From Candidatus Latescibacterota bacterium (GTDB lineage: Bacteria > Latescibacterota > UBA2968 > SICM01): a stretch of DNA of 64,000 bases. The stretch's first letter is position 1, and the number at the start of each line of letters is the position of its first letter. Both the position numbers and the translations under genes were made by a program. Shown piece after piece: positions 30,068-59,269 of this stretch. The stretch is taken from positions 192,001 to 256,000 of the forward strand of contig CBDCJO010000002.1 of the NCBI GenBank assembly GCA_965217865.1, given 5' to 3'. The notes under the pieces are model-generated. The model saw only the letters and a list, made by a program, of their open reading frames with translations. It did no database searches and was not told the origin of the DNA.

Positions 30068-32032
30068 GTGAGCAGCCTGAATATCGGCAACTTCATCTGG
30101 AACATCGCTGACGATGTGCTGCGGGACGTCTATGTGCGAGGCAAGTATAGAGACGTCATTCTGCCGATGACGGTCATTCGGCGTCTGGATGCGGTGCTCG
30201 AGCCGACCAAAGAGGCCGTGCTCAAGATGAAGGGGCAACTCGACAGGGCAGGCGTCGCCAATCAGCACGCTGCGCTCTGCCAGGCGTCCGGCCAGGCCTT
30301 CTATAACACGTCCTCCTTCCGCCTGCGCGATCTCGCCTCCCGGGGCAAGCAACAGCAACTCAGAGCCGATTTCGAGGCTTTCCTGGACGGCTTCTCCCCG
30401 AACGTCCAGGAGGTCCTCGACAAGTTTCAGTTCCGTAATCAGATTCCGACCCTGATCGAAGCCGGCGCGCTTGGATTCCTGATCGAGAAGTTCATCGACA
30501 GCTCGATCAATCTGAGTCCGAAACCCGTCTTGCACCAGGATGGCTCCGTTCGCCTTCCCGGACTCGACAACCACTCCATGGGGACGATCTTCGAGGAACT
30601 GATCCGTCGCTTCAACGAAGAGAACAACGAGGAAGCCGGAGAGCATTTTACTCCGCGTGACGTCGTGGAGTTGATGTCCCGTCTGATCCTTGCGCCCATC
30701 GCAGACATCATTCGGTCAGGCACCTATCTCGTCTATGACGGCGCCTGTGGCACCGGCGGGATGCTGACCGTTGCCGAAGATACGCTCGTCAAGCTCGCCG
30801 CAGAGAACGGCAGGGAGGTGTCTGTTCACCTCTACGGACAGGAGGTAAACCCCGAGACCTTCGCCATCAGCAAGGCCGATCTCATCCTGAAGGGTGAGGG
30901 AGGCGAGGCTGAGAACATGAAGTTCGGCTCGACCCTGTCCGGAGATGCGTTCCCGGGTCGAGAGTTTGACTTCATGCTCTCAAATCCACCCTACGGCAAG
31001 TCCTGGAAGACTGATCTTGAGCGCATGGGTGGGAGGAAAGACATGCGCGACCGGCGCTTCGTCACCGGGCACGCCGGCGATCCGGAGTACTCGCTGATCA
31101 CCCGTTCCAGCGACGGCCAGATGCTGTTTCTGGCCAACATGCTGAGCAAGATGAAACACGGCACCAGGTTGGGCAGCCGCATCGCCGAGGTCCACAACGG
31201 TTCGTCCCTGTTCACCGGCGACGCCGGCCAGGGCGAGAGCAACATCCGGCGCTGGATCATCGAGAACGACTGGTTGGAGGCCGTCGTCGCGTTGCCACTC
31301 AACATGTTCTACAACACGGGCATCGCGACCTATATCTGGGTGCTCGGCAACCGCAAGCCGGAGCATCGCCGGGGCAAGGTCCAACTCATTGACGCCACCA
31401 AGTGGTTCAAGCCGCTGCGCAGGAACCTCGGCAAGAAGAACTGCGAACTGTCGGGCGAGGACATCCGGCGCATCTGCGACGTGTTTCTTGCGTTCGAGGA
31501 AACCGGGCAGTCCAAGATCTTCCCGAACCGGGCCTTCGGCTACCGGAAGGTAACGGTCGATCGGCCGTTACGCCTTGAGGGGATCGACCCCGAGCGCGCC
31601 TGCACTGCCAAAGAGATCAAGGCGCTCAAGGAGGAAGCCGGGCGTTCGGAGACCGCGCCTCCGGTCATCAAGAAGATCCTCAGGAAGGGCACCGAGCCCG
31701 ACCCCGTGCGCGGTCTGTTCGCAGCCACCGTCAAGGGCAAGCCCGTCGTCGTCGAGTACGAACCCGACACTGAGCTGCGTGACACCGAGCAAATCCCGCT
31801 GTTGGAGGAGGGCGGAATCGAGGCGTTCCTGCGCCGAGAAGTGCTGCCCTATGCGCCTGACGCATGGTTTGTGCCGGACAGCATCAAGACCGGCTACGAG
31901 GTCAGCTTCACCCGATACTTCTACAAGCCACAGCCGTTGCGCAAGCTGGAGGAGATCCGGGCGGAAATTCTGGCGCTGGAGCAGGAGACGGAGGGGTTGC
32001 TCGAAAAGATTATTGGGACAATGGAAAGATGA
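30068..32032 (+). CDS. hsdM: Type I R-M methyltransferase subunit
   Basis: GEHFTPRDVV, YDGACGTGGML and NPPYG motifs. Confidence 0.95.
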   Translation: MSSLNIGNFIWNIADDVLRDVYVRGKYRDVILPMTVIRRLDAVLEPTKEAVLKMKGQLDRAGVANQHAALCQASGQAFYNTSSFRLRDLASRGKQQQLRADFEAFLDGFSPNVQEVLDKFQFRNQIPTLIEAGALGFLIEKFIDSSINLSPKPVLHQDGSVRLPGLDNHSMGTIFEELIRRFNEENNEEAGEHFTPRDVVELMSRLILAPIADIIRSGTYLVYDGACGTGGMLTVAEDTLVKLAAENGREVSVHLYGQEVNPETFAISKADLILKGEGGEAENMKFGSTLSGDAFPGREFDFMLSNPPYGKSWKTDLERMGGRKDMRDRRFVTGHAGDPEYSLITRSSDGQMLFLANMLSKMKHGTRLGSRIAEVHNGSSLFTGDAGQGESNIRRWIIENDWLEAVVALPLNMFYNTGIATYIWVLGNRKPEHRRGKVQLIDATKWFKPLRRNLGKKNCELSGEDIRRICDVFLAFEETGQSKIFPNRAFGYRKVTVDRPLRLEGIDPERACTAKEIKALKEEAGRSETAPPVIKKILRKGTEPDPVRGLFAATVKGKPVVVEYEPDTELRDTEQIPLLEEGGIEAFLRREVLPYAPDAWFVPDSIKTGYEVSFTRYFYKPQPLRKLEEIRAEILALEQETEGLLEKIIGTMER

Positions 32033-32838
32033 GCATGGTTCCTTCGTTCCCCGCAGGTCAGATCGAGTCGTTGGCAAAACTGCTCGGTGATTGCGGTACT
32101 GGACCGGATATCACTCGTATGCTGGCTCATTGCGGGCTGATTGATGGCTCGGGAGAATCCACCAAATGGCGGAGGCTCTATTGGGTATTCCTCGATGTCC
32201 AGAACAGGGACAGGTGCGCCAACCAAACACTCAACTTCATTAAGGCTTTCCTTACGCCTGCCCGTTTCGTTGGCAGGAATGAGGAATTCGAACCGCACCG
32301 TCAAGCACTGAACACAATCTTGGCATTCTCAGGGCTTGAGTACGGATCTGACGGGAATTTCCGGAAGCGCCGGGCTGCACAGACGCTGGGCGAGGCAGAG
32401 CGGCGAGCAGACACGATCCAGGCAAAGTTTCAGGGGCGGCGCATCCATCCGGAAGTAATGAAGTACTGTCGCGCTGAACTTATGCAGGACGACTACTTCC
32501 ATGCTGTCTTCGAGGCGACCAAAGGGCTGGCGCAACGGATTCGCGAGATGTCGGGAGTTGATGGGGACGGAGCGACCCTTGTGGATCGGGTCTTCTCTAC
32601 CAGCCGGCCAGTGCTGGCGTTCAACTCGTTGCAAACCGAGACGGAAAAGAGTGAACACCGGGGATTTGCTGAGCTGCTGAAGGGTTGCCTTGCGGCCGTC
32701 AGGAACCCTCGCGCGCACGAACCGAAGATACTCTGGAAGGGTGAAGATGATGCAGCGGACTACTTCACTCTGATTTCACCCCTCCATCGGAAGCTGGATG
32801 GTTACGTGACGACCGGGTTGAGAGCATTCCGTGATTAG
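32029..32838 (+). CDS. TIGR02391-family protein
   Basis: YFHAVFEATKG, DGATLVDRVF and RNPRAHE motifs; ATGA overlap with hsdM. Confidence 0.85.
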   Translation: MSMVPSFPAGQIESLAKLLGDCGTGPDITRMLAHCGLIDGSGESTKWRRLYWVFLDVQNRDRCANQTLNFIKAFLTPARFVGRNEEFEPHRQALNTILAFSGLEYGSDGNFRKRRAAQTLGEAERRADTIQAKFQGRRIHPEVMKYCRAELMQDDYFHAVFEATKGLAQRIREMSGVDGDGATLVDRVFSTSRPVLAFNSLQTETEKSEHRGFAELLKGCLAAVRNPRAHEPKILWKGEDDAADYFTLISPLHRKLDGYVTTGLRAFRD

Positions 32839-34249
32839 AGACCTCCACTCCTACCCCTCCTACAAACCCTCCGGCGTCGAGTGGCTCGGCGACGTGCCAG
32901 AGCATTGGGAGGTGCGGCGATTGAAATACTCAGTGACGCTACTTATGGGTCAGTCTCCATCCTCGAACGATTGCAGTGACGAGCGCATCGGCCCACCATT
33001 CTTGCAAGGCTGTGCGGAGTTCGGGGCGCATCACCCGAATCCTGTGCAATTTTGTCGTGCTCCATCAAGAATCAGTCCGATGGGTGCGATACTTATGTCA
33101 GTTCGCGCACCTGTCGGCAAGCTAAACACAGCCGATCAGGAATATGGCATTGGTCGGGGACTTTGTGCTATTACCTCAAACGAGAGAATTTCCCACACTG
33201 GATTCTCTCACTACCAACTCGAAACACTTGGTCATGGTTTGAAGTTGGTTTCCACTGGATCCACGTACGACGCTGTCAGCGTAGGTGATATTGGAAACCA
33301 GTCGTTGGTTCTCCCCCCCCTCCCCGAGCAAGCCACCATCGTCCGCTATCTCGACCACACCGACGAACGCATCAGGGCCTACATCCGCGCCAAGCAGAAG
33401 CTGATCAAGTTGCTTGAGGAGCAGAAGCAGGCCGTCATCCACCGCGCCGTCACCCGCGGCCTGGATCCCGACGTTCCCCTCAAGCCCTCCGGCGTCGAGT
33501 GGCTCGGCGACGTGCCAGAGCATTGGAAGGTGCGGCGACTTCTAACTGTTGCCGAAATGAGGGTCAGTAACGTGGATAAGCATACCAAGGAGGATGAATT
33601 ACCAGTCCGACTCTGCAATTATGTCGATGTTTACAAGAACGACCGTATCACTCAGGGGATGGCCTTCATGAACGCAACGGCCTCGCGAGAGGAGGTTGAG
33701 AGGTTCCGCCTACAGCGAGATGATGTCCTCATAACTAAGGACTCCGAGTCCTGGGACGACATTGGGGTTCCGGCTCTTGTGACGGAGCCAGCCGATGATC
33801 TTCTCTCCGGTTATCATTTGGCCTTACTGCGGCCTCTCAGACAGGTGCTAGGGGCTTATCTGGCCCGGACTTTACAAAGCAGGGGAGTTGCGTATCAGTT
33901 TCACGTAGAAGCGAAGGGTGTAACGCGATACGGCCTTACTCACGCTGGCATCCAATCGGTACACATTCCCCTCCCACCCCTCCCCGAGCAAGCCGCCATC
34001 GTCCGCTATCTCGACAAGGCCACCGCCGACATTGACACCGCGGTTGACCGCGCCCGCCGCCAGATCAACCTGCTACGCGAATACCGCACCCGCCTGATCG
34101 GCGACGTCGTGAGCGGCAGGCTCGACGTGCGTGATGTTGAGATTCCGGGGTCTGGGGAAGAGCCCGCATTCGACGGAACCAACGACCTGGAAGGGGAGAC
34201 GGAACCAGACGAGGCCGAGGTGATGGAGGAGGCCTGTTGTGACGACTGA
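32831..34249 (+). CDS. hsdS: Type I R-M specificity subunit
   Basis: Two TRDs bounded by repeated KPSGVEWLGDVPEHW and PPLPEQ segments. Confidence 0.95.
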   Translation: MIRDLHSYPSYKPSGVEWLGDVPEHWEVRRLKYSVTLLMGQSPSSNDCSDERIGPPFLQGCAEFGAHHPNPVQFCRAPSRISPMGAILMSVRAPVGKLNTADQEYGIGRGLCAITSNERISHTGFSHYQLETLGHGLKLVSTGSTYDAVSVGDIGNQSLVLPPLPEQATIVRYLDHTDERIRAYIRAKQKLIKLLEEQKQAVIHRAVTRGLDPDVPLKPSGVEWLGDVPEHWKVRRLLTVAEMRVSNVDKHTKEDELPVRLCNYVDVYKNDRITQGMAFMNATASREEVERFRLQRDDVLITKDSESWDDIGVPALVTEPADDLLSGYHLALLRPLRQVLGAYLARTLQSRGVAYQFHVEAKGVTRYGLTHAGIQSVHIPLPPLPEQAAIVRYLDKATADIDTAVDRARRQINLLREYRTRLIGDVVSGRLDVRDVEIPGSGEEPAFDGTNDLEGETEPDEAEVMEEACCDD

Positions 34250-37202
34250 CACCAGCGAGAAAGGCCTGGAATCGCTCATCGTCCGCTCGCTGATCGACGA
34301 GGCCGGCTATGCCGCCGGGGACCCGAGGGACTATGACCGCGACCATGCCGTCGACCTGGCCAAGCTTCTCGCCTTCCTGATCGCCACGCAGCCAGCGTCC
34401 GTCGAGACGCTCGGCATCGGCACGGATGGCCCGCAGCGCGTCCAGTTCCTCCACCGCCTTCAGGGCCAGATCGCCAAACGCGGCGTCATCGACGTACTGC
34501 GCAACGGCGTGAAGCACGGTCCTTGTTCTGTCGAGTTCTTCTTTGGCACGCCGTCTCCCGGCAACGCCAGGGCGGAGGAGTTGTTCGCCGCGAACGTCTT
34601 CAGCGTCACGCGCCAGCTGCACTACTCGAAGGACGAAACCAGGCTGTCGCTCGACGTGGCGCTCTTCGTCAACGGCCTGCCGGTCGCTACGTTCGAGCTC
34701 AAGAACAGCCTGACGAAGCAGACCGTCGAGGACGCCATCGAGCAGTACAAGCGCGACCGCGACCCGAGGGAACTGCTTTTCCGGTTCGGCGGCTGCGCCG
34801 TCCATTTCGCGGTGGACGATCACGAGGTGCGGATGTGCACCCACCTCAAAGGCGAGGGATCGTGGTTCCTGCCCTTCAACCAGGGTTGGAACGACGGTGG
34901 GGGCAATCCGCCGAATCCCGCCGGCCTCAAGACCGGCTACTTCTGGAAGGAGGTTCTGACCAGGCGGAACCTGACGGACATCCTCGAAAACTACGCCCAG
35001 GTGGTCGAGGAGAGGGACGACAAAGGCCGGAAGAAGGCCCCGAAGCAGATCTTCCCTCGTTTCCACCAACTCGACGTGGTTCGCAAGCTGCTGGCGGACG
35101 TGAAGGCTTCCGGCGCAGGCAGGCGCTACCTGATCCAACATTCGGCGGGATCGGGCAAGAGCAACTCTATTGCCTGGCTCGCCCACCAAATGATCGAACT
35201 GGAAACAGGCGGCAAACCGACTTTCGACTCCATCATCGTTGTCACCGACCGGCTGGTGCTCGACAGGCAGATCCGTGACACGATCAAGCAGTTCGCCCAA
35301 GTGGAATCCGTCGTCGGCCATGCGGAGCGGTCGGGTGACCTGCGAGCGTTCTTGAAGACCGGCAAGAAGATCATCATCACGACGGTCCAGAAGTTCCCGT
35401 TCGTTCTCGACGAGATCGGCGATGAACACCGAGGCCGCAGGTTCGCCATCATCATCGACGAAGCCCATTCGAGCCAGGGCGGCCGGACGTCCGCCGCGGT
35501 CTCCATGGCCCTGGGGACGGCCGGTGCCGGGGACGAAGACGAGACGACCGAGGACAAGATCAACCGGCTGATGGAGTCCAGGAGACTGCTGCCCAACGCC
35601 AGCTACTTCGCGTTTACCGCGACGCCGAAGAACAAGACGCTGGAGATTTTCGGAGAGCCCGTACCCAAGGCCGGGCAGGTCGGGCACGTTCCATTCCACA
35701 GCTACACGATGAAACAGGCGATACAGGAGGGCTTCATCCTGGATGTGCTGGAGCACTACACGCCGGTGGACAGCTACTGCCGGCTCATGAAGACGGTGGA
35801 GGACGATCCTCTGTTTGACACCAAACGAGCACAGAGGAAGCTTCGAAGATATATCGAATCGCACGAGCACGCCATCCGCCAGAAGGCGGAGATCATGGTC
35901 GATCACTTTCACGATCAGGTCATTGCGCGCCTTAAGATCGGCGGCCAGGCCCGGGCCATGGTGGTGACCGACGGTATCCAACGGGCGATCCGTTATTTTC
36001 ACTCCTTCGAGGAGTATCTGGAGGAACGCAAGAGCCCCTACCGGGCAGTAGTCGCCTTCTCGGGCGAGCACGAATACGGCGGACGGAGGGTCACCGAGGC
36101 GTCGCTCAATGGATTTCCGTCTGGCAAGATTGCCGACAGGATACGGGAAGACCCTTACCGGTTTCTGGTTTGCGCCGACAAGTTCCAGACCGGCTACGAC
36201 GAGCCGCTCTTGCACACCATGTACGTGGACAAGGTGCTCTCGGGCATCAAGGCGGTTCAGACGATCTCACGATTGAACCGTGCGCGTCCGCAGAAGCACG
36301 ACACTTTCGTGCTGGACTTCATGAACGATGCCGAGGGCATCGGAGCGTCGTTCGAACCTTACTATCGAACCACGATTCTCAGCGAAGAAACCGATCCGGA
36401 CAAGCTGCACGACCTGAGGACCGGCCTCGATGGTTATCAGGTCTACAACCGGGATCAGGTGGAGGAACTCGTCGCTCTCTACTTGAGCGGAGCCGACCGC
36501 GACCGGATCGATCCGATCCTGGATGACTGCGTGGCGATCTACAGATCCGACCTCGACGAGGACGGCCAAGTCGATTTCAAGGGCAAAACGAAGGCGTTCA
36601 CACGGACTTATGGGTTCCTCTCGTCGATTCTGCCGTACACAAACGCGGAATGGGAGAAGCTGTCCATATTTCTAACCTTCCTGACGCCCAGGCTGCCGGC
36701 GCCTGAGGAGCAGGACCTGTCAAAGGGCATTCTCGAGGCGATCGACATGGACAGCTACCGGGTCGAGGTACGGGCGAGGATGGCGATCCCCCTGCCTGAC
36801 GCGGACGCTGAGATTGGTCCGGTGCCGACGAGTGGCGGCGGCCGGAAACCAGAGCCGGAGGTCGACTACCTGAGCAACATTCTCAAGACCTTCAACGAGC
36901 TGTTCGGCAACATCGAGTGGAAGGATGCCGACAAGATCGGCAAGGTCATTACCGAGGAGCTGCCGGACAAGGTCGCTGCCGACAAACCCTATCAGAACGC
37001 TATGAAGAACTCCGATCGGCAGAACGCCCGGATTGAACACGACAAGGCACTCGAACGGGCTGTGATTGAATTGCTTTCCGACCACACTGAACTCTTCAAG
37101 CAGTTCAGTGACAATCCTTCATTTCATAAGTGGCTTTCTGAGATCATCTTTACAGCAACCTACCATCAAGGGGCTGAAGGTGGGAGCCTGTCAGTCCCGT
37201 AG
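34239..37202 (+). CDS. hsdR: Type I R-M restriction subunit
   Basis: FELKN, HSAGSGKS, DEAH, FTATP and QTGYD motifs. Confidence 0.95.
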   Translation: MTTDTSEKGLESLIVRSLIDEAGYAAGDPRDYDRDHAVDLAKLLAFLIATQPASVETLGIGTDGPQRVQFLHRLQGQIAKRGVIDVLRNGVKHGPCSVEFFFGTPSPGNARAEELFAANVFSVTRQLHYSKDETRLSLDVALFVNGLPVATFELKNSLTKQTVEDAIEQYKRDRDPRELLFRFGGCAVHFAVDDHEVRMCTHLKGEGSWFLPFNQGWNDGGGNPPNPAGLKTGYFWKEVLTRRNLTDILENYAQVVEERDDKGRKKAPKQIFPRFHQLDVVRKLLADVKASGAGRRYLIQHSAGSGKSNSIAWLAHQMIELETGGKPTFDSIIVVTDRLVLDRQIRDTIKQFAQVESVVGHAERSGDLRAFLKTGKKIIITTVQKFPFVLDEIGDEHRGRRFAIIIDEAHSSQGGRTSAAVSMALGTAGAGDEDETTEDKINRLMESRRLLPNASYFAFTATPKNKTLEIFGEPVPKAGQVGHVPFHSYTMKQAIQEGFILDVLEHYTPVDSYCRLMKTVEDDPLFDTKRAQRKLRRYIESHEHAIRQKAEIMVDHFHDQVIARLKIGGQARAMVVTDGIQRAIRYFHSFEEYLEERKSPYRAVVAFSGEHEYGGRRVTEASLNGFPSGKIADRIREDPYRFLVCADKFQTGYDEPLLHTMYVDKVLSGIKAVQTISRLNRARPQKHDTFVLDFMNDAEGIGASFEPYYRTTILSEETDPDKLHDLRTGLDGYQVYNRDQVEELVALYLSGADRDRIDPILDDCVAIYRSDLDEDGQVDFKGKTKAFTRTYGFLSSILPYTNAEWEKLSIFLTFLTPRLPAPEEQDLSKGILEAIDMDSYRVEVRARMAIPLPDADAEIGPVPTSGGGRKPEPEVDYLSNILKTFNELFGNIEWKDADKIGKVITEELPDKVAADKPYQNAMKNSDRQNARIEHDKALERAVIELLSDHTELFKQFSDNPSFHKWLSEIIFTATYHQGAEGGSLSVP

Positions 37203-40706: not shown

Positions 40707-41465
40707 ATGAAGTTCGATGACCGATCATACCTAAAGGCATATGATCACAACTACCGAGTCGCTTACGAAGAAGGCTTAACATATCTTGGCGAAGGGGCTT
40801 CACAGAAAAAGGATCGTCAGCGCCTCAAGGGACTACTTCGAAGAATCCCACATTCTCCGAGGAAGACCAAGATTTTGGATCTGGGATGTGGGGACGGAAC
40901 GATCGGCCTCTATCTGACAGGGCTTGGATATGACTACCTCGGCATCGACATCTCCGAGGCGGGCATCGAACGAGCCAGACAACGAGCGGCTGAAAATGAT
41001 GTGGGAGCAAGATTCGAAGTTGAGAATGTGCTGGACCTCCACAACTTCCAGACCAACGGGTTTCCGATCGTTATCGACTGCTATTGCTTCCATATGTTTG
41101 TTCTCGATGCTCATAGAGCAGCGTATTTTGAGAATGTTAGACGAGTCCTACGAGACGACGGGTATTTCATCCTTTTTGGTCAGCGCGATGAGGCCGCGTA
41201 TGAAGGTCCGGTTACCTCATTCGATGAATTTTGCAGGCTGACGGGCACCAGCACTTCTGGGATTCCGTTTCAGAAGTACCAAGAAGGTCAGTGGAGGAAT
41301 GTAAAAGGCAAAAGGGTATTTCTACTTGGTCGTGCGCGGAGTCTGAAGGGATACAAAGAAGAACTAACGAAGGCTGAGTTCAACGTTGAGTACCGGGCGA
41401 CCTATGGACGGAATCGACGGAATGCAGGATTCATACTGAAGAAGAGCAGGGAGAGCCTGTCATAA
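40707..41465 (+). CDS. Class I SAM-dependent methyltransferase, cassette gene
   Basis: ILDLGCGDG motif; followed by attC R'' GTTTAAC. Confidence 0.85.
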   Translation: MKFDDRSYLKAYDHNYRVAYEEGLTYLGEGASQKKDRQRLKGLLRRIPHSPRKTKILDLGCGDGTIGLYLTGLGYDYLGIDISEAGIERARQRAAENDVGARFEVENVLDLHNFQTNGFPIVIDCYCFHMFVLDAHRAAYFENVRRVLRDDGYFILFGQRDEAAYEGPVTSFDEFCRLTGTSTSGIPFQKYQEGQWRNVKGKRVFLLGRARSLKGYKEELTKAEFNVEYRATYGRNRRNAGFILKKSRESLS

Positions 41466-41519
41466 GACCTTTCGGAAGGCTCTAACAGCGGCAACTGCGT
41501 TTAACACATATTAAAGGCC

Positions 41520-42006
41520 CCGGGTCAAGAAAAAAAGACTCCTCCATCACGATTTTCACCGTTTTTTTGCGACCCTAACGTTCGGGGCGTGCAATGAGCC
41601 GATCCGAAGAGGTTTGGCGATGTTCGGATCTTTGTCAGTCGTCGGTCTGACTTGATTTTCACAAACCGGGCTAGATGTGAGCCATCTGCACCAAACACGT
41701 ATCGGGAATCAAGCGCCTCTCACGGTATACTGTGGAGCGCCCTGGGAGAGGCATTGTCCTCTCCCTCCAGAAAATAATCGGTACCCCTTGAGTCCCAATC
41801 AAGAAGGATGGCTGTTCTCCCCTTTTATGAGGGGGAACGCCAGTTAGGTTCGGGTTCATCGCGGGGGCAGACGGACTGACTGTCTCAGATCCGCTCATCT
41901 ATGTTCTAAATAAGGGGTGAAGGCGGCTTCCCAATCAAGCCGATGAGCTGGGCTATTGTCCGGACGTTGCCCTGCCAGTTAGGCGCCGGGTTAACCGCCC
42001 CACCCA
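41520..42006 (-). ncRNA. Putative bridge/seek RNA of element B
   Basis: Two repeated modules CCTAAC-tggc...cttgattggga enclosed by stems. Confidence 0.7.
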
Positions 42007-43050
42007 TTATGCTACAAACCGTTTCTCGTCGAATGCCTGGCCGTTTTTGAGCATTTGGTAGGCGGCCACGCCGAATTTGTGAGCGATGACGCTCTTGGCT
42101 TTTCCCGGACCTTGTTTGCTTTTGAGCTTCTCGTAGTATCTATTGATCGGTTCTGACCATCGCTGGGCGACGAGGATGATTTCTGAGAAGGCCCACTTTA
42201 GGTGTGGGTTGCCGATTTTGTTATTCCCGTCCTTTGTCTTCTTTCCAGCGGACTCTCTCTCGACTTTGATCAGCCGGCTGTAGGAGGAGAAGGCTGAAGC
42301 GGATTTGAACCGTTCAATCGTGTGGATTTCATACAGGATGGTCATGGCCAACATCTCCCCAAGTCCGGGAACCGTCATCAGGATAGACAGGACATTGCGA
42401 TCGTGATGTTTGGCCTGTGCCAAGACTTGCTTCTCGACTTTGTAGATCATTTTGTCCAGGGAGTCAACCAGGTCCAGATCGCAGTCCACAGACATACTCA
42501 GATCTGGGTCGGCCAGACGTTCGCACAGCTTTCTCCTGTTGCTCTTCTTTTTGACCTGGTCGCTGAGAGGATCCAGGATAGCTTGCTGAGAGAAGGTGTT
42601 CTGGATGTGGGTGTAACACTCAGCCCGTAAGGCCACAAACCGGTGTCTTCGCCGGAGCAGGTCCCGGGTTGCCCGCATCTCTTGCGGATAGGCATAGGCC
42701 ATCGGGAACAGGTTGCAGCGCATCAGCTCAGCCAGCATTCTGGAATCGAGACGGTCGTTCTTTTTCTTGCCCCCATGGATCGCCTTCATATACAGGGCGT
42801 GTCCCAGGTAGAATGGAATCCCGGCCTTGTGACACCCGTCAGCCAGCCAGTACCAGTTGAAGGTTGACTCCACCCCGACGGCGATGCTACCGAGGTGAGT
42901 TTCCAGCACCTGCAGCAGGAGCTTGAAGTCGTTTTTCAGGTTGCGCTGGAACACAATCTCTCCCATCTTGTCCATGATGCAGACAAACATCGTTCTGGCG
43001 TGGAGATCGATGCCACAGAAATAGTTCGAGTCGATCCTTGCGTATTGCAT
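42007..43050 (-). CDS. IS110-family DEDD recombinase
   Basis: GIDLH, VEST, KNDRLDS, ESAGK and GNPHLKW motifs. Confidence 0.95.
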   Translation of the reverse strand: MQYARIDSNYFCGIDLHARTMFVCIMDKMGEIVFQRNLKNDFKLLLQVLETHLGSIAVGVESTFNWYWLADGCHKAGIPFYLGHALYMKAIHGGKKKNDRLDSRMLAELMRCNLFPMAYAYPQEMRATRDLLRRRHRFVALRAECYTHIQNTFSQQAILDPLSDQVKKKSNRRKLCERLADPDLSMSVDCDLDLVDSLDKMIYKVEKQVLAQAKHHDRNVLSILMTVPGLGEMLAMTILYEIHTIERFKSASAFSSYSRLIKVERESAGKKTKDGNNKIGNPHLKWAFSEIILVAQRWSEPINRYYEKLKSKQGPGKAKSVIAHKFGVAAYQMLKNGQAFDEKRFVA

Positions 43051-43239
43051 AAGGCCCTCCTGTGGGAGAAAGGTGATTGAGATATCCGGATCTCAATTAT
43101 AACCTCTCCTGACAACGAGGGCCTTTATATTAATATCACCCCATTGCCGGCTTCGGACCATTCGGGCCTTCGCGAAACCCCTTCGGGGTTCGGCAATGGT
43201 GGAACGTTAGTGGCCATGCTCGAAAATTGAGGGTTTCAA

Positions 43240-44244: not shown

Positions 44245-44524
44245 GAACCAAACGGCTTCGGTTCAGTTATGTAATCAATGCCTAAGTAGTTGATAAGCTG
44301 AATTTTAGAAATATCGACTGTGGATGATTATGCCCGTAAGAGAACATAAGGTCAGCGACTACCGTCCTCGCAAACATGTCTCCGCCGAAGCCGGTCTACG
44401 AACTGAGACAGGTGCATATATCGGCAACCCGGACACAGTCGGTCAGTTTGTATGACAACTCTTCTGAAAAGGCGAACCATTGATAGTCTAACTCGTCTCC
44501 GAAATTGATCTCGACGATCGTCGT

Positions 44525-44934
44525 CGGCGGGTAGCACGTCCTTGAGCGCTGGGTTGTCGCACTCGATCCCGACCATCGCCTCGTCTACCCGCTGGCCGAT
44601 CGTGGGTTGTTTCGCGTGCGCCTTGAGATGTGTCCAGCGGGCCTCGGGCGGCACCCAGAAGATGTTCCCGGCGCGGTACTCGTCCGGGTCTTCCGGATCG
44701 GCGCCTTGCGCCCGCTCCCCTTCGAGGCGTGCGTGCGCTTCCTCGAAGGCATCGGAGATGTATTTCAGAAAGAGGAGGCCGAGGACGACATGCTTGTATT
44801 CGGCCGCGTCCATGCTGCCGCGCAGGGGCATCGGCCGTCTGCCAGAGCTGGGCTTCGTAGCCGGTCGTGGCGTCATGGGTGCCCGGCTTCGGATTGGGAT
44901 CGGATTGCTGATTTTTCGGTCTTCCTCGTGCCAT
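44525..44934 (-). pseudogene. hsdM N-terminal fragment of a second type I system
   Basis: [29 protein letters not shown]...[11 protein letters not shown]. Confidence 0.85.
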
Positions 44935-45480
44935 TTACTTCGTAATTCCTCAAGTTGTCGCCGCAGTTTCAACGTCGTTGGCGTTCGCCTCTCTCAATCC
45001 ACCCCAGGAATGGAGCGTAACGGAAGCCTCATTGTCTGTATCGTGTGGTCATACCTTGTCCTGCCTTGATGTGTTCCAGGATCCTGTCCTCCAGTTTTCC
45101 AAGTAATGGGCCATTTCTTCTTTCAAATTCCCGGATCTCTCTTCGACTGCAAGTTCAGATTCTGTCGTGCAGTCCCTGAGTATTCGGCGAGCCATGGCAA
45201 CGTCCAGAGGGAGTATCGATGAAAACCGACAGATCGATGAGTTCACGAAACCTGGGGTGATCGCGACCAAAGGGATAATCGTGGACGACATATTTCGTCT
45301 TTCCTTCATAATCTCTTTCTCGACGGCATCATCCATTCCAGGGAAATCGAATTCTAAAAGATCCGCCCTCCACATGCTCCAATCATACAAATCATCCGGA
45401 TATTTACATTGGTGTCATCAAAATCGTCGGCACAAAATAGCCCAGACTGGGGTAGCGATTCCGCCAAGACCCACGATTAA

Positions 45481-46448: not shown

Positions 46449-46793
46449 GGTAATTATATACTTGACAAAGTGATAATGAACCAAACGTGTTTGGTCCATT
46501 CCTCAAGGGATGCTTCGTATAGATCAACTCCCGTTTTTGATCACGATCCGCTTGAGTTCAACCATATCCGACTTGATTTCAGCAATCTTCTTTTCCGTAG
46601 ACGGCTCGCTGGTCTGCAAACTGATCTTGCGTGTTCTCGTCGTTTGTTTTAAGGCGATTATCCGCGCGTATCGATGCAATGGCTTCAACAATCACGTTTT
46701 GAAACGCCTTCGCAAGGTTTACAGCGCTCCCGTTCAAATCGTGACTGGCCATGTCATTTCTCCTCTTTTTACTTTGTCAAGTATATAATTACC
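46449..46793 (-). mobile_element. IS1595-like MITE, copy 1
   Basis: 23-bp perfect TIR ggtaattatatacttgacaaagt; 8-bp TSD gttacttc. Confidence 0.9.
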
Positions 46794-47007
46794 GTTACTT
46801 CACTTCCGATTGTCGTTTGGATGGGCTACAGCATCCACGGAAACGAACCGAGTGAGAAACAATATATAGAAGAGCATATAATAAATCAGTGGAAAGGTCA
46901 AGTCTTAAGCGTCCTGCAAAATGGATGGAGAGCACCCGAGGTCCTGTGAGTTTCACGCAACCGGTTTAGCGTCGCTCCTCGACGGAGCTGCGTTCGATGA
47001 GGCTCGG

Positions 47008-54150: not shown

Positions 54151-54365
54151 ACCGCTTGCTATGAGGGGGAGAGTCCGGGAAAGCGGCTTGCCAACCCGCC
54201 TACTGCGGGACGGTAGCCGACAACACACGGTAAGTGGAGAACCCCCGCTTCATTCGTGATGGCTATTAGTTATATATTTTTCCCAATGGTTATATCCATC
54301 GTTGTCCAAAATGTAATGTATAAAGAACTCTTTAAAAAACCTTGGGAATATCTTTTAAGTTAAAT

Positions 54366-54715
54366 GGTAATTATATACTTGACAAAGTAAAAAGAGGAGA
54401 AATGACATGGCCAGTCACGATTTGAACGGGAGCGCTGTAAACCTTGCGAAGGCGTTTCAAAACGTGATTGTTGAAGCCGTTGCGTCGATACGCGCGGATA
54501 ATCGTCTTAAAACAAACGACGAGAACACGCAAGCTCAGTTTGCAGACCAGCGAGCCGGCTACGGAAAAGAAGATTGCTGAAATCAAGTCGGATATGGTTG
54601 AACTCAAGCGGATCGTGATCAAAAACGGGAGTTGATCTATACGAAACGAAGCATCCCTTGAGGAATGGACCAAACACGTTTGGTTCATTATCACTTTGTC
54701 AAGTATATAATTACC
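54366..54715 (+). mobile_element. IS1595-like MITE, copy 2 (inverted, no TSD)
   Basis: Same 23-bp TIRs and interior as 46449-46793. Confidence 0.9.
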
Positions 54716-55309: not shown

Positions 55310-55429
55310 CTGATAAATTGTAGAATTCTCAGGTATGAGCCTCATAGAATCTAAAAAGAGAAGACCGACTGTGCGCGCTTTATGTTGGCCCCGTTATGGG
55401 CTTCGCCGTGAAGGGGCCGCGCCAGCATC

Positions 55430-55517
55430 GCCTAACAAGCAGTTACCACTGCGCCGCATACGCGGCTTGGGCTTCGCCAACCGGCTTCGCCGGTTCGGTA
55501 ACTGCAAGACGTTAACC
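55430..55517 (+). other. attC site
   Basis: GCCTAAC-aagcagttacc...ggtaactgcaagac-GTTAACC; R' is complementary to the next R'' GGTTAAC. Confidence 0.9.
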
Positions 55518-56088: not shown

Positions 56089-56171
56089 GGTTAACACAGC
56101 ACTCCCGAGCTTCGGCCCATTCGGGCCTCCGCGAAACCCCGGCGGGGTCGGGAGTGCAGGAAACGTTAGGC
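56089..56171 (+). other. attC site
   Basis: GGTTAAC-acagcactcccg...cgggagtgcaggaaac-GTTAGGC. Confidence 0.9.
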
Positions 56172-56818: not shown

Positions 56819-56848
56819 AAACGAGCAGAACCCCAGCTTCGCCTAACA

Positions 56849-58478
56849 CATATTAAAGGCCCCGGGTCAAGAAAAAAAGACTCCTCCATCACGATTTTCA
56901 CCGTTTTTTTGCGACCCTAACGTTCGGGGCGTGCAATGAGCCGATCCGAAGAGGTTTGGCGATGTTCGGATCTTTGTCAGTCGTCGGTCTGACTTGATTT
57001 TCACAAACCGGGCTAGATGTGAGCCATCTGCACCAAACACGTATCGGGAATCAAGCGCCTCTCACGGTATACTGTGGAGCGCCCTGGGAGAGGCATTGTC
57101 CTCTCCCTCCAGAAAATAATCGGTACCCCTTGAGTCCCAATCAAGAAGGATGGCTGTTCTCCCCTTTTATGAGGGGGAACGCCAGTTAGGTTCGGGTTCA
57201 TCGCGGGGGCAGACGGACTGACTGTCTCAGATCCGCTCATCTATGTTCTAAATAAGGGGTGAAGGCGGCTTCCCAATCAAGCCGATGAGCTGGGCTATTG
57301 TCCGGACGTTGCCCTGCCAGTTAGGCGCCGGGTTAACCGCCCCACCCATTATGCTACAAACCGTTTCTCGTCGAATGCCTGGCCGTTTTTGAGCATTTGG
57401 TAGGCGGCCACGCCGAATTTGTGAGCGATGACGCTCTTGGCTTTTCCCGGACCTTGTTTGCTTTTGAGCTTCTCGTAGTATCTATTGATCGGTTCTGACC
57501 ATCGCTGGGCGACGAGGATGATTTCTGAGAAGGCCCACTTTAGGTGTGGGTTGCCGATTTTGTTATTCCCGTCCTTTGTCTTCTTTCCAGCGGACTCTCT
57601 CTCGACTTTGATCAGCCGGCTGTAGGAGGAGAAGGCTGAAGCGGATTTGAACCGTTCAATCGTGTGGATTTCATACAGGATGGTCATGGCCAACATCTCC
57701 CCAAGTCCGGGAACCGTCATCAGGATAGACAGGACATTGCGATCGTGATGTTTGGCCTGTGCCAAGACTTGCTTCTCGACTTTGTAGATCATTTTGTCCA
57801 GGGAGTCAACCAGGTCCAGATCGCAGTCCACAGACATACTCAGATCTGGGTCGGCCAGACGTTCGCACAGCTTTCTCCTGTTGCTCTTCTTTTTGACCTG
57901 GTCGCTGAGAGGATCCAGGATAGCTTGCTGAGAGAAGGTGTTCTGGATGTGGGTGTAACACTCAGCCCGTAAGGCCACAAACCGGTGTCTTCGCCGGAGC
58001 AGGTCCCGGGTTGCCCGCATCTCTTGCGGATAGGCATAGGCCATCGGGAACAGGTTGCAGCGCATCAGCTCAGCCAGCATTCTGGAATCGAGACGGTCGT
58101 TCTTTTTCTTGCCCCCATGGATCGCCTTCATATACAGGGCGTGTCCCAGGTAGAATGGAATCCCGGCCTTGTGACACCCGTCAGCCAGCCAGTACCAGTT
58201 GAAGGTTGACTCCACCCCGACGGCGATGCTACCGAGGTGAGTTTCCAGCACCTGCAGCAGGAGCTTGAAGTCGTTTTTCAGGTTGCGCTGGAACACAATC
58301 TCTCCCATCTTGTCCATGATGCAGACAAACATCGTTCTGGCGTGGAGATCGATGCCACAGAAATAGTTCGAGTCGATCCTTGCGTATTGCATAAGGCCCT
58401 CCTGTGGGAGAAAGGTGATTGAGATATCCGGATCTCAATTATAACCTCTCCTGACAACGAGGGCCTTTATATTAATAT
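56849..58478 (-). mobile_element. IS1111-type element B, copy 2, 1630 bp
   Basis: Apparently identical to copy 1; CA core on both sides. Confidence 0.9.
57349..58392 (-). CDS. IS110-family DEDD recombinase
   Basis: Protein identical to 42007-43050. Confidence 0.95.
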   Translation of the reverse strand: MQYARIDSNYFCGIDLHARTMFVCIMDKMGEIVFQRNLKNDFKLLLQVLETHLGSIAVGVESTFNWYWLADGCHKAGIPFYLGHALYMKAIHGGKKKNDRLDSRMLAELMRCNLFPMAYAYPQEMRATRDLLRRRHRFVALRAECYTHIQNTFSQQAILDPLSDQVKKKSNRRKLCERLADPDLSMSVDCDLDLVDSLDKMIYKVEKQVLAQAKHHDRNVLSILMTVPGLGEMLAMTILYEIHTIERFKSASAFSSYSRLIKVERESAGKKTKDGNNKIGNPHLKWAFSEIILVAQRWSEPINRYYEKLKSKQGPGKAKSVIAHKFGVAAYQMLKNGQAFDEKRFVA

Positions 58479-59269
58479 CAAGGCACTCCCGAACCTGAGT
58501 GACCTCCTTTGACCATTTTAATCGACAGACACACCCTTCAGGGTCGAGCGCATTTCAAGTATGAGGAAACCCGCGGGCTGCGTCTCAAGTCCTTCATTGA
58601 TCTTGTTTCGAATGAAAGCGCTGAGGCCGTCAACTTCACAGACGACCAGATCACGGGGGAATCTCTTTGTAATTGTGCTCTTCTCATCATTCCGACACGG
58701 AAAGTGAGGAATACGCGGCGATCATGCAATATGATGGCGGAATGACTCGTGAGGAAGCCGAAACTCAAGCTCGTGAGGCGAAGATGCTTGATGATCTCCT
58801 GAACCTCCCCCCGTTCGACCTGAAGGACCTCCCCGAACCTGCGCTTGATGATCTCCTGAAGGATCTCCTCATCCTGCCGGAACTCCCTGAACTCCCCCCA
58901 TTCGTGTGACTGTCGCACTCCACTGTTGCAACTCCACTGTCCCGCTCCACTATCCCATATACCCCCCACGGTCGCTTTTCTGAAGGTTCCGCATCCATTG
59001 CCCGGATTCCTGAATAAAGTCGCACACGGGGAGAATCCGATGCCCTGTGGGCGATTCCGGGGCAAGGGGGCCATCTCGTTTAAGGATCCCAGCCCATGAG
59101 GGGTCGCGGCTCCGCCGCCGGAAACCACATGGGGCCTCCTTCCAAGAAAAAGTGGAGGCAAAAACGTTGCGCGGGGCTATCCGGTCGGCGGATTCGGAAA
59201 CTCCGGCCCTGGACGAGGGGTCGATTCGCCGGTTGAAGGATGAGCTTTGCCGCCGCGAGCTTGGGCTGA

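Follow-up and report, generated by a model that had tools for sequence, protein, structure and literature searches.

The targeting of attC sites by IS1111 elements guided by a seekRNA is already known for ISKpn4, ISPst6, and ISPa25 (PMC11187229). As far as the sections of that report covered here go, ISEc11, ISKpn4, ISPst6, and ISPa25 have a downstream noncoding region, subterminal inverted repeats, a top-strand match that precedes the bottom-strand match, seekRNAs of 70 to 100 nt, and one described target loop. The bridge RNAs of IS621 and ISCro4 carry a donor loop and guides to the left and right of a 2-bp core (PMC11208160, PMC13626964, 10.1101/2025.05.14.653916), and the parts of these reports used here give IS621 a single target loop and a single donor loop at the left end. 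IS1111 donor guides sit in a multiloop, according to part of PMC11208160. Target-loop-only RNAs have precedent in the portions used of PMC11187229 and 10.1101/2025.10.25.684509; in CazIS110-1, such an RNA works beside the full bridge RNA and is a piece of that same RNA with the same guide (10.1101/2025.10.25.684509). IS110 bridge RNAs have been described as a single two-stem unit, and tandem two-spacer guide units are known from TIGR arrays, which have a Nop-domain protein and many regular units, each programmed independently (both from sections of PMC12045711).

Here, we describe an element in a window of 64,000 nt (the whole stretch of DNA analyzed) from a Candidatus Latescibacterota bacterium. 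It shares with the IS1111 seekRNA elements the downstream noncoding region, the subterminal repeats, the order of the strand matches, and, in its first module (~90 nt), the length of a seekRNA. Guides on both sides of a 2-bp core, a donor loop in a multiloop, an aligned catalytic serine, and an insertion-favoring handshake, with AU in the target loop against AT in the donor (PMC13626964, in part), are shared with IS621. Unlike IS621, it has three modules, located at the right end, two of which are clasped by a helix. The one-target-plus-one-donor layout of the IS110 family was not found, as two modules are of the target type. In contrast to CazIS110-1, the accurate guide sits on a separate upstream module and the relaxed guide on the bridge module, and in contrast to TIGR arrays there is one extra, specialized unit.

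We found no report of an element with two target loops in the text passages searched, as distinct from figures, bioRxiv supplements, and the covariance-model collections (PMC11208160, 10.64898/2026.10.21.760802). Many of the models in 10.64898/2026.10.21.760802 are stated there to deviate from the IS621 layout, and the two-target-loop layout may be among them, unnamed. Relatives with 35% identity to our element carry the annotation “IS110-like element ISGsu4 family transposase,” and one of these (locus L205) has the same three modules by eye. The supplement sequences of ISGsu4 and ISMahy12 also show common motifs by eye; no paper on the RNA of either was found, and a main-text search for both names was empty. 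The noncoding sequence of ISKpn4, as given in the supplement of PMC11187229, is unlike these modules by eye, and the named IS1111-attC members ISKpn4, ISPa21, and ISPst6 were absent from the 25 matches listed of 162 plasmid matches. The window element is likely a lineage separate from those named members that has the same kind of target.

The element, its copies, and attC sites

The features of the element and its surroundings are collected in Table 1.

Table 1. Coordinates of the element, its predicted RNA modules, and attC-related features in the window
Feature	Position	Strand	Remark
Complete insertion sequence, both CA cores included, 1,634 nt	41505..43138	-	ISGsu4-like IS110/IS1111
Second, identical copy	56847..58480	-	Reconstructed site without complete attC fold
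IS110-family recombinase, 347 aa	42007..43050	-	Profile matches and alignment to IS621
Left subterminal inverted repeat, perfect 9 bp	43119..43127	-	
Right subterminal inverted repeat, perfect 9 bp	41512..41520	-	
TTGACC, predicted -35 box	41523..41528	-	Meets -10-like GATATT after 17 nt in the in silico circle junction
Module 1, target-binding loop 1, separate hairpin, ~90 nt	41915..42005	-	
Loop 1 left target guide	41978..41986	-	8 target bases and core C
Loop 1 right target guide	41934..41942	-	With core pair and handshake dinucleotide AU
Clasp helix, 5' strand	41867..41874	-	Encloses modules 2 and 3
Module 2, target-type loop 2	41784..41866	-	
Loop 2 left guide	41843..41851	-	First two bases stem-paired in consensus fold; last 3-4 track target across relatives
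Loop 2 right guide	41798..41806	-	With core pair and following dinucleotide
Module 3, donor-binding multiloop	41690..41782	-	Left guide 41770-41778; right guide and core 41696-41702; handshake UU 41694-41695
Clasp helix, 3' strand	41682..41689	-	
Methyltransferase ORF, cassette with interrupted attC	40707..41465	+	
R'' of interrupted attC	41499..41505	+	Insertion directly 3' of AAC-A; 82-nt reconstructed hairpin
Rest of interrupted attC	43139..43212	+	R' GTTAGTG at its end
Empty attC-like site, near-perfect loop 1 match	55430..55517	+	By eye; missed by automated detectors
Empty attC-like hairpin	56089..56171	+	Automated detection

The recombinase matched PF01548 and PF02371 above their cut-offs and NF033542 with 188.7 bits (cut-off, 140). 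We identified by eye a DEDD set at D15/E61/D99/D102, and S267 aligns with the serine of the YES-G catalytic loop of IS621, although the protein is distant from that of IS621 (E = 5.6e-08). The DEDD RuvC-like and Transposase_20 domains, the aligned serine, and the covariation of loop 1 with the insertion site (below) bear out the original prediction of an IS110-family RNA-guided element. About 500 nt of noncoding sequence lie downstream of the transposase gene versus about 90 nt upstream, a trait of the IS1111 group. The subterminal inverted repeats are perfect over 9 bp and agree at 10/13 positions in the 7/3 geometry, compared with 11 to 13 bp and extensions of 7 and 3 bp in the IS1111 criterion.

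The host genome holds seven identical full copies (subfamily A), two full copies at ~95% (subfamily B), five partial copies, and two end fragments. A close match was present in just 1 of 60 genomes of the host's relatives. More broadly, members occur in cultured Vibrio, Alteromonas, Pseudoalteromonas, and Paraburkholderia. A quick tree was built from fetched relatives, none of them named reference elements; the long branch of L084 in this tree is an artefact. Two left-end remnants of 51 bp each (host genome C2:104411-104461 and C2:3773907-3773957) have near-identical attC-like flanks. Elsewhere in the window, near-identical inverted copies of a ~350-nt element with its own terminal inverted repeats (46449-46796 and 54363-54715) look like a MITE, and a type I restriction-modification locus (HsdM, HsdS, HsdR) spans 30068-37202, with an extra HsdM fragment at 44352-44972.

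Both flanks of the element carry the CA core. As had been proposed, removing the element from the site at 56841 leaves GCCTAACAAGG, and CGCCTAACAAGC is present at 55429-55440. Targeting of attC R'' also held up: complete attC hairpins were recovered at 4/9 reconstructed full-length sites, and the remaining 5/9 kept TAA-CA, with no intact partner end found. TAA stands directly before the core in 10/11 left arms, a fixed attC position after the R'' AAC-A and opposite to the cassette; the element described here is accordingly oriented opposite to the methyltransferase cassette gene. The predicted AAG on the far side of the core fared less well. The copy's own site is GCGTTTAA-CA-CCCC, a right arm without the AAG match, which the original prediction had missed.

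As a background for site choice, we used 22 empty attC-like hairpins of the host genome, an unvalidated set that is incomplete because, after two detectors that were too strict, a third still missed the site at 55430. A search of the host genome with NF011946, which we take to be the integron integrase profile, gave nothing above cut-off. Its best match, a split tyrosine-recombinase match at C2:1657175-1658018, is possibly a broken integron integrase; an attC-like hairpin lies close by at 1656184. A 144-nt palindromic repeat bounded by TCAACCCGTG, which is not attC, occurs at host genome C1:294146 and C2:178717, 1400705, and 3324467. One subfamily B copy (L169, C2:370702-372333) lies 2 nt off the usual register in a TAA-CA-CA site; CACA is common to donor and target there, which suggests slippage in core alignment.

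Three predicted modules in the noncoding end

The two target-type modules had been proposed from a handful of strings, and all of these are in place on the minus strand: GCGCCTAAC at 41978-41986 and GGCTTG at 41936-41941 in module 1, AACCTAAC at 41843-41850 and TTCTTG at 41800-41805 in module 2, and ATTATTTTCTGG at 41767-41778. Each target-type module folds as stem, internal loop, and stem, in agreement with that proposal. Two co-registered repeats of at least 9 nt appeared in only 2/2,000 dinucleotide shuffles of the noncoding end. The further claim that the guides lie in loops stood for module 2, where both are open, and in part for module 1, whose single-sequence fold pairs GCGCC; in a five-sequence consensus of module 1, 7/9 left-guide bases are unpaired. 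Folding z-scores were -2.66 for the whole region and -1.4 to -2.1 for single modules. An Rfam search gave no match. Five RNA runs contained 7 to 13% of the words searched for and yielded contigs of related copies at depth 2 to 5, some running into flanking DNA; these showed neither joints nor RNA ends and speak neither for nor against expression.

We compared the modules across a curated set of 47 element types drawn from loci L001-L199, which gives no layout frequency because loci with unplaceable ends or guides were left out. The outer stem forms in 47/47 elements for module 1 and in 42/47 for module 2, and compensatory change was seen in 23/87 consensus pairs. The clasp helix has a mean length of 6.9 bp versus 5.3 ± 0.2 bp in permuted sequences (0/5,000; 42/47 elements parsed) and also has compensatory changes. 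Loop 2 and the donor loop lie 33 to 47 nt apart in 44/45 elements with a call, compared with a variable 62 to 345 nt between loop 1 and loop 2. In planctomycete relatives (L012-L028, L179), the inner stem of loop 1 reaches 100 to 165 nt and the noncoding end 640 to 1,050 nt, with guides and boxes kept. TTGAC was also seen near the right end of relatives.

Module 3 had been suggested as the donor loop, and its right guide and handshake bases do covary with the element end and the target. The right guide, ATACGTG at 41696-41702, had been overlooked; across relatives it agrees with the element's right end at a mean of 4.9/6, with the guide chosen as the best match among motif hits. The donor left guide was above its null at positions 1 to 3 and 5 only. 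Position 7 of this guide, which adjoins the handshake bases, is usually mismatched (match 0.18 over 39 elements; 41770-41778 in the window) and may be a conserved tuning feature.

In 35/38 elements, across TT, TC, AC, and GC, the donor-loop handshake is complementary to the final two bases of the target. A handshake complementing the donor was found for loop 1 in 36/39 elements and for loop 2 in 5/39, counts that include left-end calls for L009 and L093 that are unverified or wrong. In the window element, the loop 2 handshake is AU, the same as that of loop 1, so that the handshake argument for a separate role of loop 2 is void for this element. From comparative sequence, the handshake bases are set as in the insertion-favoring IS621 pattern. 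On the same evidence, the predicted RNA has three modules: loop 1 follows both arms of the site, loop 2 follows core-proximal bases only, and the donor loop follows the element ends.

Agreement of loops 1 and 2 with insertion sites

The original prediction held that the duplicated loops are alternative addresses that widen coverage of variable attC sites. Such natural multiplexing has some points in its favor, as both loops of the window element spell attC R''-like words. The sites in the host genome speak for loop 1. Loop 1 fits better than loop 2 at 7/7 subfamily A sites, and loop 2 was ahead of both loop 1 versions at 0/22 empty hairpins. Out of 12, loop 1 scored 8.6 at A sites versus 6.3 at the empty hairpins (p = 0.0007); loop 2 scored 5.7 versus 4.8 (p = 0.045), on bases partly common to both loops. 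The predicted 11-mer occurs three times in the host genome for loop 1 and zero times for loop 2.

Subfamily B has a loop 1 altered on both guides and loop 2 guides the same as those of A. Left positions 2 and 3 are CG at 6/7 A sites and CA at 4/4 B sites, matching each loop 1 (Fisher p = 0.015, with one B site read with the 2-nt register slip). The right arm CAGC, predicted by the B loop 1, was present at 2/4 B sites and 0/7 A sites.

In the curated set, guide positions were hand-picked from candidate lists, partly with sites in view, and the permutation nulls ignore kinship. Left guide 1 matched its site at 0.57 to 0.99 over positions 2 to 8 (null, 0.28 to 0.73). Left guide 2 matched at 0.16 to 0.28 over positions 1 to 4 (null, 0.21 to 0.29) and at 0.52 to 0.98 over positions 5 to 8 (null, 0.30 to 0.73). 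Right-arm matches were 0.98, 0.67, 0.69, and 0.80 for guide 1 and 0.61, 0.40, 0.38, and 0.46 for guide 2. At 54 sites with both arms, loop 1 was ahead at 47 and loop 2 at 3 (by one base each), with 4 ties.

A held-out set from a marine gammaproteobacterial clade was parsed by motif rules blind to the sites. Of 78 matches, 12 failed and 1 was a duplicate; the 65 distinct rows left included 49 with both arms. Among these 49, loop 1 was ahead in 28 and loop 2 in 6, with 15 ties, and leads of at least 2 bases went to loop 1 in 16 cases and to loop 2 in none. Mean scores out of 12 were 8.1 for loop 1 and 7.0 for loop 2, a small advantage with both loops loose. In a first, stricter parse of this set, neither left guide was above its permutation null, distal left positions included.

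The ties and the six sites leaning to loop 2 are what multiplexing would lead one to expect, as is left-arm position 3, which follows loop 2 in 19 cases and loop 1 in 9. Loop 2 also has a small excess over background (0.52 ± 0.22, with loop 1 at 1.96 ± 0.24, over 27 sites and 14 background hairpins). Against it, no site of the 54 curated and 49 held-out ones favors loop 2 by at least 2 bases, contrary to two site classes with one per loop, and the AA class of held-out sites is equally common empty (4/14) and occupied (9/30). Moreover, the two-loop layout was found in relatives with non-attC targets, e.g., GGGT-CA and GCGGA-CA, and therefore is not an adaptation to attC or a response to attC variety. 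Taken together, we consider multiplexing improbable. For the held-out clade, a two-address reading is disfavored less strongly, because the loop 1 signal is weaker there. An apparent site class matching the loop 2 right arm came from a mis-called loop 1 motif and disappeared once the parse was started from the donor loop. Separately, the right motif of loop 1 is interrupted in L213 and L214, and both target modules look decayed in L225; these are possible natural loop mutants.

Loop 2 might instead read no DNA at all, either as a structural or protein-loading module or as a duplicate kept like loop 1 by gene conversion. Most of the core-proximal bases tracked by loop 2 are common to loop 1 (132/168 weighted cells), so that copying between loops could give the loop 2 pattern. 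Among cells in which the loops disagree, the weighted core-proximal count is 2.0 for sites following loop 2 and 20.6 for sites following loop 1; the corresponding right-arm counts are 4.8 and 56.4. Loop 2 clearly does not follow the target in L010, L009, and L045, and one more element is partial. The right guides are identical in four Acidobacteria-clade elements, and GAAAC/GAACC opens left guide 2 in distant attC clades, its first two bases stem-paired. However, the left guides agree at 0.13 to 0.38 over positions 1 to 4 and at 0.83 to 0.96 over positions 6 to 8, and gene conversion is disfavored because a conversion tract should have made the stems and distal guide bases alike, which they are not. 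A further point against a DNA-blind loop is that the last bases of both loops and the site switch together about seven times (hand count on the quick tree). We therefore regard a loop 2 that reads no DNA as unlikely, with more in its favor than multiplexing.

Pairing of loop 2 inside the element, as an RNA pseudoknot or as self-targeting of the right end with a regulatory function, seems very improbable. In subfamilies A and B, as in L120, a downstream stretch complements left guide 2 at 8/9 bases, yet across 41 elements the best complement averaged 6.3 versus 6.2 in permuted sequences (p = 0.08), with 6.5 for loop 1.

Proposed mechanism and meaning

We favor, at a rough probability of 0.55, a reading in which loop 1 is a free-standing seek-type selector, and loop 2 with the donor loop forms a clasped bridge module with a relaxed seed. 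By analogy with IS1111, IS621, and CazIS110-1, we infer circle formation, a junction promoter, RNA processing, and a role for loop 2. The excised circle would bring TTGACC and GATATT together at the junction, 17 nt apart, as a promoter. The transcript would be cut into a ~90-nt loop 1 RNA and a ~190-nt RNA holding loop 2 and the donor loop. A recombinase dimer with loop 1 would open attC R'' and join a dimer loaded with the donor loop, and strands would be exchanged at CA. Loop 2 would pair only a few bases around the CA core and might serve as a low-stringency grip at any already occupied site, e.g., in excision or synapsis.

Going further, the clade may have split the job of the target loop between two loops: an accurate seek loop, reprogrammable independently, would serve insertion, and a seed-only, donor-clasped loop, mostly without donor handshake, would be dedicated to excision or synapsis at any occupied site. 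We offer this as a tentative proposal, possible rather than probable. Excision is reported, in part of 10.64898/2026.08.31.748434, to run on the donor loop alone, which would explain why a relaxed loop 2 is tolerated and also why loop 2 may be dispensable.

IS110 RNA-guided recombinases are under development as genome editors, and, in the sections of the literature covered here, the relation between target-loop-only and full bridge RNAs and the way in which excision occurs are disputed. A natural three-module RNA, reprogramming within one genome, and cultured members make these questions testable loop by loop. In this clade, guide prediction from the loop beside the donor loop would choose the wrong loop. 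If true, the job-splitting proposal would unite the seekRNA and bridge RNA models within a single natural element that has built-in control of direction.
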